Shown here in pieces: positions 5,486 to 11,850 of a stretch of 64,000 bases of DNA (position 1 is the first letter of the stretch; each line of letters starts with the position of its first letter). Source of the DNA: an uncultured Actinomycetes bacterium (GTDB lineage: Bacteria; Actinomycetota; Acidimicrobiia; IMCC26256; DASPTH01); the NCBI GenBank assembly GCA_963705625.1, contig CAVPKG010000008.1, positions 2,846-66,845 on the forward strand, read 5' to 3'. The notes beneath the pieces are model-generated. The model had not been told where the DNA came from. It saw only the letters and a program-made list of their open reading frames with translations, and did not search any database. The translations under genes were made by a program, and so were the position numbers.

Positions 5486-6232
5486 AGCCGTGCTCTCGTA
5501 GCCCGTCGATGATGCGAGCAGTGACGGGCTGGAGTTGGTCGGTGAGCAGGATGATCCCGAAGATCGCGAGGATCCCTGCCGAGACGAGCGTGATCGCGCG
5601 TGAGTGGCGCTTGAACCAGTTGAGCGTCCGCGTGAGCTTGCCCATCGCCAGCCCCACCACTAGGAACGAGAGGCCCAGCCCGAGCGAGTAGGAGATGAGC
5701 AGCAGCGTTCGCGCGCGGTGTTGTCCCCGACCGCGGCAAAGCCGAGCACCGCGCCGAGCACGGGACCGATGCAGGGCTGCCAGCCGAGACCGAACGCCGC
5801 ACCGGTCACCGGCGCGGCCACGGGCCCGAAGCGCTCGAGGTGCGGATGGAACCGCACCTCCTGGTAGAGGCTCGGCGTGGTGAGGATCTGCGAGCCCGCG
5901 AGGTAGCACGCCATCAGCAGCACGAGGCCACCCGAGATCCGCGTGAGCGTCTCCTGGTTGGTGAAGAGCGCGTTGCCGACGGTCGTGGTGAGCAGACCCA
6001 GGAACACGAACACCACGGTGAAGCCGAGCACGAACAGGCCTGTGTTGATCGCGATGCGCTTGAGGTAGTGCGGGCTGCCTTCCTGGATCTCGCCGACCGA
6101 GAGGCCCGTGACCAGGCTGAGATAGCCGGGCACCATCGGCAGCACGCACGGCGAGAGGAACGAGATCACGCCACCGCCGAACGCCGTGAGGAGATAGAGG
6201 TTGCTGGTGACGTTCGTCGCGAGCGCGTGCAT
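5460..6232 (-). CDS. ccdA: cytochrome c biogenesis protein CcdA (frameshifted)
   Basis: SFLSPCVLPMVPGYLS and GWQPCIGPVLG; C-terminal YSLGLG in a second frame. Confidence 0.88.
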
Positions 6233-6293
6233 ACGGAAGGTGCCGGTGATGGTAGGGCGGGTGGATCACGGTCCGAACTCGGGACCGTCTGCC

Positions 6294-8494
6294 CTATGGC
6301 AAGGCAGGCAGGCTCCACACGCCGACGACCTTGAACGCGTTCCCACCTGCGAAGTTCACGACCGGCGAGTCCTTGCACTTGGCGTTCGTGGCGCTCGGCG
6401 CAGCGGAGTCGAGGAACCGGGTCGTGACGCCCGCGCTCTCGGTGCTCGAGCCGCAGGCCCCACCGTCCGAGTGCAGGTACAGGTCGGTGTTCGGTTGCGG
6501 CGTGATCGTTCCGTCGAAGCGCGACGGGCGCGAACGCGGCGTCGTAGTACACGCGCAGGCCCGTGGCGCTGTTGTGACTTCCTCCGGCCACGGTGCACTT
6601 CGTGCCGTTCGGGTTCGTGCCGATCCGCGCCGAGATCCGGAGCGCCAGCGCGTCGTTCGTGCCGACGGCCAGGGGCGCCGTGAGCGGATACCAGGGGACG
6701 ACCACCTGCTTGGCGAGGGAAGGATTCCTCGTCACTCCGGGCACGCATCGAGTCAGACCCGACGCGACCGGGTTGCCGTTCTGGAGCAACTCGACCTGGA
6801 GGTCGAACAAGGTGCCCTGGTCGTCGCTGTTGCGCAGCCCGACGAACGCGTGGACGTCGCTGAGCGTCGTGAGCTGGCGCGCCGTTACAGCAGGTGCGCC
6901 GGGCTCGGTGATGACCGCATTGGCGGTCCCGTCCTGGTCGCCGGGGGCCACACCGTCCTGCAGGTGCAGGGTGATCCGGTCACCGCTCACGACGGCGGCG
7001 GGCGCCAGGAGCTTGACCCACGCCGGGGTACTCGTGAGCTTGTAGTACGCGTCGGGGTGGGTGCCCGGCGGCAGGTCGATGGTCACCGTTGCCGGATCGC
7101 CGGGCTGGGCCACGTGCACGTTGAAGCCGAGGATTCCCAGAGGGAACGCCTCCCCGTCGGGCCACGCCGGGGTCGTGGGCGCGGGCAGGGCCTGCACGTC
7201 GGTCAGGGTCGTGCCCTCGGGCGCGGTGATCGTGAGCGGACTCCCGCCGGCGGGGCTTTGCACCCTCACCTGGTTCGTGGGCCCGAAGTAGAGGTAGGCG
7301 TGGCCCGACCACGCGTGGTCGGCGGTTGGTGTCTGGTTGGCCACGAGGAAGCACTGGTCACCGCCGAGGACGGGCGGCACGGTCGGCGGCTGCCCGTTCT
7401 CGGTGCAGTCGCTGGTGGTGAGAGCGAGGTCGGGTGGCGGGGTCGTCACCGGGCTCTGCACCACGGCGACGTCGGCCTCGAAGGTGCCGTCGTCCTGGAC
7501 CGGGAAGCGCGTCCCCAGGGTGAATGTCCCGTCCGTCGTCGGGTCGCCGATGATCGGCGTGAAGTTCTGGCCGTCGATCTGGCCGCAGAAGCCGGGTCCC
7601 GCGTCGCCGTTCACACATTCGGCGACGACGACGTCCTCGTCGGGCACCCATCCGAGCCCCGTCACGTGGACGGTCGAGCCGTCCCCGAGATCGGTGATCG
7701 GGCTGGCCGTGATCCGGCCCCACCAGAGGCCGGGCCAGACCCCGTTGTCGCGGGCCGGCTGGTCGGGAGTGGTCTGGCTCTGGGCGAGGAGGAAGCACCC
7801 GAACGGGAACTGCCGGCCCGAGGTCTGGCAGTTCACGCCGCCGATCTGCTTCGCGACCGCCAGCGTTCCCGTGAACGTCGAGTCGTTGCCAATCGTGACC
7901 GTGGTCTGGTTGCCCACGCCGCCACAATCGGAGATCTGCGCGCCGGGCGCGCACTCCTTCACGTTCACCTGTGAGCCGGCGGTGAAGCCGCTGAGCCTGA
8001 ACGAAACGGCGTCGCCGTCGAGGAGGCCGAGGTTCGAGTTGTTCAGGAACTCCAACTTCGGCAAGGGAATGCTCGCGTCGAACCCGAGGTCGTGACTCGC
8101 CAACTCGGTCGGGCTGGGGCCCAAGGGCCACAGGGCCACCAGGCGGCAGCCCTCGGTGACGCAGTCATTGCCGTTCACGACGCGGTGCACCACCACCGGC
8201 ACGGCCGCGAACGTGCCCGAGCCGGAACCGGTGCCGCCGAGGCCGATGCAGTTCGCGCCAGGGCCCACGCACTCGACGAACGAGACGTTCTGGTTGGCGC
8301 TCCAGCCCGAGCCGCCGACCTGCACGGTCGGGTTGAGGGCGAGCCCCGTGTCGGGTACGACCGTGATGGACGGCGGCCCCGCCGCCGTCGCCGGTGTCGC
8401 CCCGCCGAGTCCGGTGACCCCCCGCGCTGCCCAGCACTCCGAACACAAGCGCGCACGCAGCCACGAGCGACCTGCGCCTCTGCGAACCCCGCAT
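6294..8494 (-). CDS. large secreted protein: three neocarzinostatin-apoprotein-like domains, choice-of-anchor-U-like domain, unknown C-terminal domain (frameshifted)
   Basis: signal peptide MRGSQRRRSLVAACAL; repeats P.T.L.DG.TV.V.G.G...EC; FPLGILGF..YYK..LQDG..GDQDGTANAVITEPGAP. Confidence 0.7.
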
Positions 8495-8725
8495 CACCGT
8501 CACCCCGCCCCGCCGTCGCTTCGCCCCAGAACCGGGGACCACCCTGACTCATCCGCAAGCATCCGCCCCGACGCACCCCATCCATAGAGTCCTAAGACCC
8601 CACCACGCGATCGCGGCGCGTTGAGATCTCCTCGACGCTCGCGGCGATGCGCGATTCCTCAGACGCGGAGCCCGTCCACCGTCGCTACCGTACGGCCGTC
8701 GATCCGCGAGCCAGGGGGAACCGAG

Positions 8726-9533
8726 ATGGGAAGACTCGACGGCAAGGTTGCACTGGTGACCGGCGCGGCACGCGGTACCGGCGCCACGATCGCGCAGCTC
8801 TTCGTCGACGAGGGCGCGACCGTCGTGATCGCCGACATCCTCGACGATCGCGGCAAGGAGACCGCCGAGAAGATCGGCCCCGGCGCCCGGTTCCGTCACC
8901 ACGACGTCACCAGCGAGGACGACTGGCGCGAGACCGTCGAGGACGTCCGTGCCCAGGAGGGCAAGCTCGACGTGTTGGTGAACGACGCGGCCGTGCTGCA
9001 CCTCTCGTCGATCGACGACACGACCCCGGAGACGTTCGAGAAGGTCTTCCGCGTGAACTGCTTCGGGCCGTTCCTCGGCACGCAGCGCGTGCCTGCCGAT
9101 GCTCCGTGAGACGCGCGGCGCGATCGTGAACATCGGGTCGATCAACAGCATCTTCACGCTGCCCGGCACCGTGGCGTACACGGCCGCGAAGTTCGGGCTG
9201 CGCGGTCTCACGAAGTCGACCGCGCTCGAGAACGGCAAGTACGGCGTGCGCGCCAACATCGTCTGCCCGGCCACCGGCAACCCCGAGATGCACTTCGACC
9301 TCGTCGGCAAGGAGCGTTCCGGTGATCTCCCGGCCGAGGGACCGAAGACGCCGGGCCAGGAGGCTGCCGACGAGCTCGTCACCGGCATGGACCTCGGTCC
9401 GATCGCGGCGGTCGCGCTGTTCCTCGCCTCCGACGAGTCGCGCTACTGCACCGGAGCGGAGTTCGTCGCCGACAACGGCATGCAAGTGGGCCCCGTCATC
9501 GACATCCCCGGCGTGTGGACATCCGAGATCTGA
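8726..9533 (+). CDS. SDR family oxidoreductase (frameshifted)
   Basis: MGRLDGKVALVTGAARGTG; YTAAKFG; FLASDESRYCTGAEFVADNG. Confidence 0.9.
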
Positions 9534-9955
9534 CTACAGCTCAGCGAGGCGTCGAACATCGGCGGGGTCGTTGACGCCGATCACGTCATCGAGATAGCCG
9601 AGGTTCTTGGCGATCAACATCATTGAAAGCGCCGGCGCCCTTCCCGGGGAAGATGCGACGTCAGGACGACGAATGGTGGGTGATCGCCAGCGCGCGCAGC
9701 AGCGCCCCATTGGCGACCGCTTTCTTCACCGTGTCAGTTCGTAAGAAGCCGGGGCGCGTACCCTGAAAGCTGCCCTTGTACTCCGCCCACACGAGAGTTC
9801 CTCGACGACTTACGCAGACTTGATCGATCTCGACACCGAGCTCGCGAAATACCCGCCGACCTTGCAGTTCGTAGCCGTTCGAGATCAGGAGGAAGTCACA
9901 CTGCTGTGCGAATTGCCGGCCCAGCCAACCCGCAGCGGATTGGAACTCGCTCGAT
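9534..9955 (-). CDS. putative PD-(D/E)XK nuclease, paralogous to the C-terminal domain of the neighbouring methyltransferase (frameshifted, start uncertain)
   Basis: GVEID..WAEYKG..PGFLRTDTVKKA; then PPFVVLTSHLP and YLDDVIGVNDPADVRRLAEL-stop in other frames. Confidence 0.6.
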
Positions 9956-10310
9956 CCTGCCCCGTGTCGTTCTCGTCTCTGAACAAGGGCGCGACCCGGA
10001 TCTCGAACGCAACCCGCTCTTCGTCGAGATCGTCGTCCTTCCAGATGTGCTCGTCGGGGTAGGCATCGACGACTGTTCCGGTCTGCTCGATCCACTCGCC
10101 AAGCGCGGTTGCCCACTCCTCTGCAAGGAGCGCAGAGCGGATCAACGATGCACGGCTCGGGTCGCGTAGGTCTGTAGCCCGAGTCCGCGCGATGACATGC
10201 AACGCAAGGACTCGAGAGAGCACCTCCTCGTCTTCTGCGATGTAGACGTCGGGAGGATCCGAGTGCACCACCGCATAGGCAACCCGTCCACGCTCGGGGA
10301 ACATGCTCAC
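9885..10310 (-). CDS. acidic hypothetical protein
   Basis: 141-aa ORF; GTG start overlaps the methyltransferase stop. Confidence 0.65.
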   Translation of the reverse strand: MSMFPERGRVAYAVVHSDPPDVYIAEDEEVLSRVLALHVIARTRATDLRDPSRASLIRSALLAEEWATALGEWIEQTGTVVDAYPDEHIWKDDDLDEERVAFEIRVAPLFRDENDTGQDRASSNPLRVGWAGNSHSSVTSS

Positions 10311-11812
10311 GTCGTCTCCGAACCGGGGCCGAGCATCTCGCCGATCGGCCCGAAGGCTCCTCCTGCCGCGTATTCGACGAGCCGGCGCTGGCCTGCATCG
10401 TCTCGCATCTCGAGAACGTCCATGAACAACTGACCGCGCGCCTTGCGAAGCGCGGCGTACCCGGCGCTTCCACGCGGAGGCAGGTCGGTAGTGAGCAAGA
10501 TCAACGGCGGTGCCCGATCGCCGAGTTCCAGTCGTAGCACCGCCGCCTCGCCGAGCGCCTTCCAGACAGTGTCCGTTCGACGGAGCCCAGCACGCGCGCT
10601 GGTGAACGCCCCCGAAACGTCGAAGTACCAGAGCCTCCCAGCGGCATCGCGTGCCGTCATGTTCACCTCGACGCCCGAACGAAACCGCTTGTTCTCTTCG
10701 ATGTCAGTGAACCGACAATCTCTCACGACCTCTTTGGCGATCTCCTCAGCCTTCTGCCCCTCCCGCACAGCGCGCGCCTGGAAACTGCCGCCGGGCTCGT
10801 CGTCCGGCTCGTTCTCCGGAATCGCCACGAGTCTTGGCCGCTCGAGCGGCGGCCTCGCCGCGATGCGATCACGTTCTGCTTGCGCTCGTTCCTTCGCTAC
10901 GGCGACATAGTTCTCGTCGGTGTCGTATCCGATGTAGTGCCGGCGTGTCCGGACTGCCGCCACTGCTGTTGTTCCCGAACCCATGAAGGGGTCGAGCACC
11001 AGGTCTTCGTCGTACGTGTAGAGCTCGATCAACCGCTGTGGCAACTCGACGGGGAATGGGGCGGGATGACCGACGCGTCGTGCGCTCTCCGCCGGAATGT
11101 CCCAGAGGTCGACGGTTGCCTCCATGAACTCGTCTTTGTAGATCGTTCCCTCGGAAGGAAGCCCCGCATGGTGTCGTTCCCGACGAGAGAGTGCCCGGTC
11201 GAAGCGCCCCTTGCTCGCGACGATCACCCGTTCAGTGAGATCGCGGAGCACGGGGTTCGCAGCGCTCTGAAATGAACCCCATGCGCACGATCCAGCGGCA
11301 CCGTGCGCCTTCTGCCAGATGACTTCTCCGCGAAGCAACAAGCGAAGGTCGTCTTGCAGGATTGTGATCACGTCAGCAGACAACGAACGGTAGGGGCGAC
11401 GACCAAGGTTGGCGACGTTGACGGCGAGTCGCCCACCCGGCTCGAGCACGCGCACGCACTCTCCGAGCACTTCCGCGAGCATCTTGCGGTACTCGTTGTA
11501 GCTCGCCGGGATGTTGCCCTGACCGAGCGCCTCCTCGTACTCCTTGCCGGCAAAGTACGGAGGGGAAGTGACGACGAGGGCTACCGAATCGGGCGCGACC
11601 TGGCGCATGTCGCGGCTGTCATCGCAGTAGATCTCGTCGACAACCTCGGTGCGCTGGACCTTCTTCGCCTTGGAGATGACGGGAGGAGTGAAGCACACGT
11701 AGAACGCGCTCGCGTCGTGACTTTCGCGTCGACCGACGCCAAAAGTTGATGTTGTCGTGGGTTTCCGGCGCTCCGCCAAGTGATCCTCCGACCGCCGGGT
11801 GGATTCTCGCAT
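10307..11812 (-). CDS. site-specific DNA methyltransferase (N4-C/N6-A, beta class) with extra C-terminal domain
   Basis: motif IV VTSPPY precedes HPAPFP and motif I DPFMGSGTT; about 150 extra C-terminal aa; true start may be nearer 11779. Confidence 0.92.
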   Translation of the reverse strand: MRESTRRSEDHLAERRKPTTTSTFGVGRRESHDASAFYVCFTPPVISKAKKVQRTEVVDEIYCDDSRDMRQVAPDSVALVVTSPPYFAGKEYEEALGQGNIPASYNEYRKMLAEVLGECVRVLEPGGRLAVNVANLGRRPYRSLSADVITILQDDLRLLLRGEVIWQKAHGAAGSCAWGSFQSAANPVLRDLTERVIVASKGRFDRALSRRERHHAGLPSEGTIYKDEFMEATVDLWDIPAESARRVGHPAPFPVELPQRLIELYTYDEDLVLDPFMGSGTTAVAAVRTRRHYIGYDTDENYVAVAKERAQAERDRIAARPPLERPRLVAIPENEPDDEPGGSFQARAVREGQKAEEIAKEVVRDCRFTDIEENKRFRSGVEVNMTARDAAGRLWYFDVSGAFTSARAGLRRTDTVWKALGEAAVLRLELGDRAPPLILLTTDLPPRGSAGYAALRKARGQLFMDVLEMRDDAGQRRLVEYAAGGAFGPIGEMLGPGSETT

Positions 11813-11850
11813 GCTGCCACGGCCCTACGACGCTTATCCGGGTCGGCCGG

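Follow-up and report, generated by a model that had tools for sequence, protein, structure and literature searches.

Three linked genes and a nuclease-fold tail

We analysed 64,000 nucleotides of an uncultured Actinomycetes bacterium (Acidimicrobiia, order IMCC26256; positions 2,846 to 66,845 of contig CAVPKG010000008.1, assembly GCA_963705625.1), hereafter called the window, in which three adjacent minus-strand genes occupy positions 9534-11812. These genes encode a beta-class DNA methyltransferase (MTase) fused to a nuclease-fold tail, an acidic middle protein and a free paralogue of the tail, and they form a cassette that is uncharacterised and common to hundreds of Acidimicrobiia species. 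An earlier, sequence-only reading of this DNA had described three linked genes in a GC-poorer patch. The open reading frames (ORFs) and the base composition agree with it, as the GC content of the cluster is 0.631 versus 0.708 in its flanks, i.e. 7.7 points lower; in other loci, the MTase is not GC-poor (median difference from flanks 0.008).

The fusion is annotated as an ORF of 501 residues (10307-11812), whose true start is probably the TTG at 11779: the window reads TTG-GCG-GAG about 11 codons inside the ORF, where the orthologues begin. The catalytic domain (residues 13-316, 10865-11776) is matched by Pfam PF01555 (N6_N4_Mtase) on residues 77-308 (E 8e-38, 131 bits versus a cut-off of 26.7, profile positions 1-221 of 221) and by the PADLOC model MTase_II (PDLC03350) on residues 13-316 (E 6e-83). 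In translation, the motif order (SPPY as motif IV, then DPFMGSG as motif I) is that of the beta class, and the nearest solved relative is 2zie (TTHA0409, E 7e-29), followed by the N4-cytosine MTases 8s9n and 8s9m. On residues ~330-501, no Pfam, NCBIfam or PADLOC model was found, nor any Pfam family up to E 1. According to a marine metagenomic methylome study, CGCG and BAAAA are methylated in every Acidimicrobiia genome that it covers, the latter by 'orphan' MTases (PMC8919816).

The sequence-only reading had also proposed that the last ~150 residues of the MTase protein are homologous to the third gene, and tblastn, BLASTP and profile hidden Markov model (HMM) searches agree. The tail matches the frame-a piece of the third gene, its longest, by BLASTP (E 1e-8, 30% identity). 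By tblastn, three collinear pieces in three frames were obtained, which contain all six segments listed in that reading, including PPFVVLTSHLP and DVIGVNDPADVRRL. The HMM of the tail family hits the free piece at E 6e-16; reciprocally, a profile of intact free-copy orthologues covers positions 3-137 of 139 on the window's tail (E 1.8e-17).

Structure searches support the predicted PD-(D/E)xK fold of the tail (residues 337-486, 10355-10804). Its AF2 model (pLDDT 88.1) has the topology a-bbb-a-b-a-b-a, with elements H14-36, E40-47, E53-59, E65-71, H84-104 and E108-112, and its best structural match is XisH (2okf; Z 10.0, root-mean-square deviation 3.1, 119 of 129 residues aligned, 11% identity). 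PD-(D/E)xK proteins predominate among the top matches (Z 7.5 to 10.0). They comprise the nuclease domains of Cdn1, Can2 and Card1, as well as AF1548, and many restriction enzymes (Z 7.5-8.8), such as BsaWI (8.8), BsoBI (8.6) and PspGI (8.5); BstEII, SgrAI, Bse634I, Cfr10I and NgoMIV are also matched, as are the small subunit of R.BspD6I (Z 7.6) and BbvCI (Z 7.3). Foldseek alone gives weak matches (best E 1.8e-3, to SfsA, EndoMS/NucS and Can2). At the sequence level, neither the tail nor the free piece matches XisH (PF08814) or any other Pfam family up to E 1.

The family hallmark of the tail is W.FDVSGAFT..R.GL.RTDT.WKALG. In the window, the catalytic positions carry N391, D405 and S407 (protein numbering), a degenerate motif, and a column census of 232 sequences shows how general this is. 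Position 55, the canonical first Asp, is N in 145 sequences, D in 28 and S in 25; position 69 (canonical D/E) is D or E in 223 of 232; position 71, the canonical Lys, carries S, A or T in 213 sequences but a Lys nowhere, so that the tail lacks the D...(D/E)xK triad. W66, G72 and G80 are almost invariant, and positions 85 (D/E, 229 of 232) and 89 (K/R, 228 of 232) are nearly so. As modelled, the tail is thus a PD-(D/E)xK-fold domain that has lost its canonical lysine and usually its first aspartate.

The free copy (9534-9954, 139-residue type) keeps what the tail has lost: it reads EID..EYK in the window, whereas the fused copy shows N for the D and S for the K, just as had been noticed from the sequence. 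In this assembly it lies in three frames (9664-9954, about 9631-9690, and 9534 to about 9640, as delimited by translation and tblastn). Intact single-frame orthologues occur in 10 of 80 loci (described below), and a word-indexed search retrieved 615 free-copy clusters, mostly of exactly 139 residues, all named 'hypothetical' and none with a Pfam domain. In 121 of 121 free copies, D44, E58 and K60 (D44-x13-E58-x-K60) are invariant, and so are RTDT, KK and H101; the PD-(D/E)xK signature claimed for this gene is therefore complete, and homology to the tail (E 6e-16) suggests that the fold is PD-(D/E)xK as well.

The middle gene (9885-10310, ORF of 141 residues) begins at a GTG that overlaps the TGA stop of the MTase gene, and its last ~25 codons overlap the free-copy start and are absent from the orthologues. 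The conserved part (~113 residues, 9972-10310) has an isoelectric point (pI) of 4.55 in the window, and the protein is acidic in 20 of 20 orthologues (pI 4.1-4.7). Although its model reaches a pLDDT of 84.8, no structural relative was found (best Z 4.3, Foldseek E 0.5 or worse), and sequence searches gave no Pfam (DUF4272 at E 0.032, below cut-off), PADLOC, NCBIfam or PDB match; Atlas matches are to unnamed Actinomycetota clusters only.

Distribution, ancestry and integrity of the cassette

A full scan of 1.84 billion representatives yielded 502 tail relatives (representative clusters) at E <= 0.001, and among the matches listed many are MTase fusions or fragments of fusions. We also noted proteins of ~305 residues (P0017, P0020, P0036, P0037, P0040, P0047 and P0071) in which a tail-type domain (FDVSGSFTS) is N-terminal and is followed by a conserved extension of ~150 residues with a GGCTS motif and no Pfam family. 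As these proteins nest inside the MTase-fused clade in a quick tree (support 98), the domain has been put to use outside methyltransferases too.

We collected 80 loci from species genomes, all of them Actinomycetota or Acidimicrobiia metagenome-assembled genomes. In all 80, the tail directly follows the MTase part, and in at least 73 the two share one open frame. The tail had been called a dead copy of its neighbour, and this did not hold up: it belongs to an old, conserved family that is fused to an MTase in every locus. Among the 66 loci with at least 1 kb downstream, the fusion stands alone in 32, with the middle gene in 24, with the middle gene and the free copy in eight, and with the free copy only in two. 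A second survey covered 121 genomes of the host's order. It found the tail in 67 of them (40 of the 71 of high quality), spread over 39 of 52 genera; 19 genomes have a full free copy, 21 have the middle gene and 10 have both. All free copies and middle genes in this survey adjoin the MTase, and three unpublished genomes (G055, G076 and G093) each have all three genes. Linkage of the three genes in other genomes is thus well founded. The expected co-occurrence of the third gene with the MTase is confirmed in one direction, as a full free copy always lies beside an MTase tail (19 of 19 genomes, 10 of 10 loci), a pattern expected alike of a toxin-antitoxin pair, the alternative raised by the sequence-only reading, and of a restriction-modification (R-M) pair, but not in the other, as only a minority of MTases have a free copy. 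Since 11 of the 21 genomes with the middle gene lack a full free copy, the partner of the middle protein should be the MTase.

The distribution is patchy at close range: the tail is absent from the two other genomes of the same genus, from the 11 genomes of family f20 and from the seven of family f11. G032, a genome of the same genus (95% complete), has at the syntenic site an MTase of 317 residues that ends directly after the catalytic domain (L096, G032:C35 559-1512), without tail, middle gene or free copy; its DNA identity to the window's MTase is 69%, versus 80-89% in the flanks. The GC dip and the low identity to this allele look like allele replacement. The same chromosomal site, between the same neighbours, was found in three genomes of two genera; for example, G081, from another genus, has an SDR gene, the free copy, the MTase and then the same downstream genes. 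A ccdA-like gene follows the cassette in 10 loci.

A quick maximum-likelihood tree of 97 rows (SH-aLRT support only) places all free copies in one clade (support 100). Branches of 3.2 and 2.5 changes per column lie between this clade and all of the tails, and groupings inside it mirror those of the partner MTases (e.g. L068, L070 and L083). A single long-branched clade with mirrored groupings indicates that the duplication is ancient and that the pair has co-diverged.

Two other gene families adjoin the fusion in other loci. Among the 50 loci with full flanks, eight have the free copy, 11 a protein of ~200 residues, 15 a protein of ~335 residues and 16 none of them, and no two occur in one locus, as would be expected for alternative partner nucleases. 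The ~200-residue family shows D..vDLKEK and DETVYRR motifs (loci L017-L074, e.g. L030:5361-5951 and L037:7713-8312), and the ~335-residue family a D..scKY motif (loci L041-L091, e.g. L041:2044-3051). Both may be alternative nuclease partners. By HMM they are unrelated to the tail and free copy (E 0.08 or worse), and they have no Pfam or PADLOC family.

Upstream of the MTase, a part of the lineage carries a damage-response type of promoter motif. The PafBC consensus is given as tGTCgg(N10)tA(N3)T, with strictly conserved GTC (PMC8635444). Within 130 bases upstream, the strict pattern TGTC[AG]N11TAN3T occurs in 22 of 80 loci (including L017, L021, L036, L054 and L078) versus 6 of 1600 control segments, and in none of the 11 loci with a free copy. 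The window has a relaxed match only (CGTCGTAGGGCCGTGGCAGCAT, GTC-N12-tA(N3)T, 11811-11832), directly ahead of the probable TTG start, and relaxed matches are found in 36 of 1600 control segments; the annotated MTase ATG overlaps its loose -10-like element. The mycobacterial RecA-NDp pattern with a fixed GTG (TGTCRGTG-N7-9-TANNNT) was tried and dropped, with no match in the window and 1 of 80 loci versus 1 of 400 controls.

The integrity of the window's free copy has to be judged against the quality of the assembly (G000; 4.05 Mb, 11 contigs, 57% complete by a CheckM-type estimate). Alignment with three intact orthologues shows two frame breaks in the window: one base is missing after 9689 (break at 9688-9689), and two are added within a CCCCGGG run at 9646-9647; in addition, the expected start codon (9952-9954) reads TCG, where orthologues have GTG at the same codon. 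Frame breaks are common in essential genes of this assembly (rpoB 1, rpoC 5, ileS 4, secA 5, uvrA 5 and valS 3, i.e. 23 in 17,010 bases or 1.35/kb; rpoC, secA and uvrA are each in six pieces), and the neighbouring SDR gene (8621-9533) is split at about 9100 (profile position 119/120), while it is an intact 268-residue gene in G032. Any call of a pseudogene in the window thus requires caution. At the background rate, the 2.28-kb cluster should contain about 3.1 breaks, and it has two. None of the free copy's invariant residues is lost across the three frames, and the correct frames contain no in-frame stops.

Public reads add some information. A single run (X1) held 6% of the sampled words, from the organism or a close relative at a depth of about 2, and its short-read contigs cover 9921-10177 at 99% identity and gap-free, with scattered pieces elsewhere. 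The 99%-alike contig has an A at 9953 (plus strand), which turns the TCG of the assembly into a TTG start. One X1 contig reads as if it had an extra T at the 9689 break, although this is thin evidence (depth 2, 22-letter side); the break at 9646-9647 lies outside the X1 read coverage. The same contig (151 bases) joins 9921 to about 9704, skipping 216 bases (72 codons, in frame) that hold the entire D..ExK core of the free copy, which could reflect either a mis-join or a deletion carried by a related population. A fusion of the middle gene with the free copy through a homopolymer error at GGGG (~9963) was considered and rejected, as the 99%-alike contig is gap-free and the orthologues have a stop. 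Altogether, the two frame breaks are most likely assembly errors, true decay being appreciably less probable. The frameshift check suggested by the sequence-only reading therefore comes out in part: the breaks fit the error rate of the assembly, but both lie in the free copy and true decay is possible.

At lower positions of the window, a large secreted-looking ORF (6166-8448, minus) contains three neocarzinostatin-family repeats (PF00960, E 2e-15), and its arginine-rich end looks like a further frameshift artefact.

Candidate mechanism and competing explanations

Our preferred reading, which we hold tentatively and with slightly less than even confidence, is that the cassette is derived from, or resembles, an R-M system, is chromosomal and mostly vertically inherited, and uses the free copy as nuclease subunit and the tail as non-catalytic module. 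The constant core would be the beta-class MTase with its nuclease-fold tail, the latter serving as a DNA-binding or docking module that does not itself cut. The free 139-residue paralogue, with its full D..ExK triad, would be the most likely cutting subunit, judging from its sequence: the triad is complete and invariant, the gene always lies beside an MTase, and it has been lost repeatedly, as restriction genes are. As a protein of 139 residues is too small for target recognition of its own, the free copy presumably works on the MTase, where it would pair with the homologous tail as a pseudo-dimer, by analogy with R.BspD6I, whose small subunit acts on a large partner. We take the acidic middle protein to be an accessory of the MTase, perhaps a regulator or inhibitor.

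The pseudo-dimer, which had been put forward from the sequence, was examined by folding the tail and the free copy of locus L013 together, each with its own alignment. The predicted complex scored 0.50 (runs 0.52, 0.45 and 0.50), versus 0.01 for the best control, with a partner pLDDT of at least 84 and a contact agreement of at least 89% between runs. When the test was calibrated, 58 of 80 solved complexes and 2 of 110 mismatched pairs passed; scores of 0.60 or less account for only seven of the 80 solved complexes but for both passing mismatches. The result is graded as weak support.

Several observations weigh against our preferred reading. Predictions in this score class are more often wrong than right unless the pairing is likely beforehand, and as dimers of the PD-(D/E)xK fold are common in solved structures, the docking pass may reflect likeness. 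Moreover, 56 of the 66 fusion loci have no free copy, so docking it cannot be the main job of the tail, and the tail-less 317-residue MTase of G032 indicates that the MTase core can do without a tail. Many loci without a free copy conserve the tail, so its main job must be independent of that partner; candidates are DNA binding, dimerisation and the docking of other proteins. The tail also keeps an acidic D/E69 and, on the next helix, a basic K/R89, so that a non-canonical active site is conceivable. Both frame breaks fall in the 0.42-kb free copy, where about 0.57 would be expected (Poisson P(>=2) ~0.11). Finally, syntenic vertical inheritance and the PafBC-type motif fit a housekeeping or damage-response function better than a mobile defence system.

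Some of these observations lead to other explanations. Nuclease decay that leaves a solitary methyltransferase is the usual fate of R-M systems, and the window's free copy may be a real pseudogene on this path, which we consider unlikely though the strongest of the competitors. The concentration of both breaks in this one gene and the absence of a start codon at the expected place in the assembly favour decay, and so do free-copy remnants in two genomes, G104 (C1:343900-344079, positions 3-62 only, with one TGA within the match) and G103 (C434:6128-6268, positions 89-135 only). Both remnants adjoin an intact MTase fusion and a middle gene, and show that the free copy has been lost over time in some lineages, like restriction genes. 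An X1 contig also skips the catalytic core (9705-9920), but it is one contig of an unreliable kind, with the shallow depth and short side noted above. The genome's own rate of breaks in essential genes, the cluster-wide deficit of breaks relative to expectation, the retention of all invariant residues without stops, and the 99%-alike X1 contigs that give a TTG start and read as if they had the base missing at 9689 speak instead for an intact gene. Improbable in our view is an explanation in which the tail is itself an active, non-canonical nuclease, making the fusion a bifunctional R-M enzyme, with the middle protein as inhibitor or immunity factor and the free copy as an optional second-strand cutter. 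The strong constraint on the tail (W66, G72, G80 and the charged positions 69, 85 and 89) would be accounted for, as would a consistently acidic middle protein whose partner should be the MTase, and active-site residues are known to migrate within the PD-(D/E)xK superfamily (Cfr10I, NgoMIV). However, none of the 232 sequences has the canonical Lys, and just 28 have Asp at the first acidic position. The RTDT..K helix motif also occurs in the free copy, alongside a canonical triad, and so is not a replacement active site. A middle gene is missing from 34 of 66 loci, a strange pattern for the immunity factor of a constant toxin.

Another explanation, doubtful and a little less probable than decay of the free copy, is that the cassette is a domesticated chromosomal DNA-processing module, in which methylation-guided nicking or repair is tied to the DNA-damage response rather than to defence. 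The shared site in three genomes of two genera and the ccdA-like gene next to 10 loci are in line with this, together with the presence of the tail in more than half of the order's genomes (67 of 121), a free-copy sub-tree that mirrors the MTase sub-tree, and the enrichment of the strict PafBC-type motif over controls. On the other hand, that motif is missing from every locus with a free copy and the window's match is relaxed only, the tail is patchy among close relatives (same genus, f20, f11), the cluster differs from its flanks in GC content and in identity to the G032 allele, and no part has a known repair function. A broader variant, to which we give the lowest probability of all, would make the tail a universal docking and DNA-reading platform for interchangeable nucleases (the 139-residue free copy, the ~200-residue D..DLK family and the ~335-residue family), with methylation-guided nicking, switched on by PafBC in part of the lineage, serving housekeeping strand discrimination or repair and not phage defence. 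We return below to the R-M-like reading, against which the known systems can be compared.

Comparison with known systems

With orthodox Type II R-M systems (of the M.PvuII, M.RsrI or TTHA0409 type), the cassette shares an MTase adjacent to a small candidate PD-(D/E)xK nuclease, the SPPY-before-DPFMGSG order with 2zie, 8s9n and 1boo as the closest solved relatives, and loss of the nuclease gene in many lineages. It differs in that the MTase has a conserved nuclease-fold tail homologous to the nuclease, and in its third, acidic protein, its synteny across genera and its 139-residue nuclease; moreover, independent action of the restriction and modification components is doubtful here. The PADLOC model REase_II gave only a stray match (E 0.06), on a different neighbour gene.

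Heterodimeric restriction enzymes offer a parallel for the proposed pairing. In R.BspD6I, BbvCI (R1/R2) and Bpu10I, a catalytic small subunit without recognition of its own works docked on a larger partner of related fold, and the tail matches structures of this group (2p14, Z 7.6; 2ewf, Z 7.3; 6eg7, Z 7.3). Here, however, the larger partner would be an MTase, and its nuclease-fold domain lacks the lysine. Similarly, Sau3AI combines, in one nuclease chain, an active MutH-like domain with an inactive duplicate that acts as a DNA-binding effector domain. By analogy, the cassette may retain an inactive nuclease-fold copy next to an active one as a module for DNA binding or allosteric control; its inactive copy, however, belongs to the MTase, and in most relatives an active copy is missing altogether. 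Type IIG/IIC enzymes combine an MTase with a catalytically competent nuclease in a single chain, the nuclease being typically N-terminal and the MTase of the gamma class; the fusion does not belong with them, as its nuclease-fold domain is C-terminal, its MTase is of the beta class and the canonical lysine is absent.

Cyanobacterial XisH (2okf), the best structural match, resembles the tail as a minimal single-domain PD-(D/E)xK fold of similar size, although the likeness is structural only, with no sequence match and another gene context. CcrM, finally, is a beta-class MTase conserved across a whole class, and its function relies on an additional C-terminal domain. This domain holds the non-target strand in the dimer and is SAND/PWWP-like (PMC6787082), i.e. 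not a nuclease fold, for which reason we dropped it as a structural relative of the tail; the sequence match to CcrM (E 3.6e-6) covers only the S-adenosylmethionine-binding motif.

The sequence-only reading had regarded the architecture as unfamiliar, and Pfam, NCBIfam and PADLOC indeed have no family for the tail, the middle protein or the free copy. Literature searches returned no description of the architecture, which is our sole basis for calling it unpublished. The three protein families, being without models in these databases, are open targets for biochemistry. New here are a free paralogue that retains its triad, the ancient divergence of this paralogue from the tail, its presence in only a minority of loci, and the finding that it never occurs together with either of two other neighbour families. 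If our reading is correct, this would be an R-M-like system whose methylase carries a disabled copy of its own nuclease, where a pseudo-dimer could couple cutting to methylation, and it would show a selfish defence module turning into a stable chromosomal fixture of a whole bacterial order.

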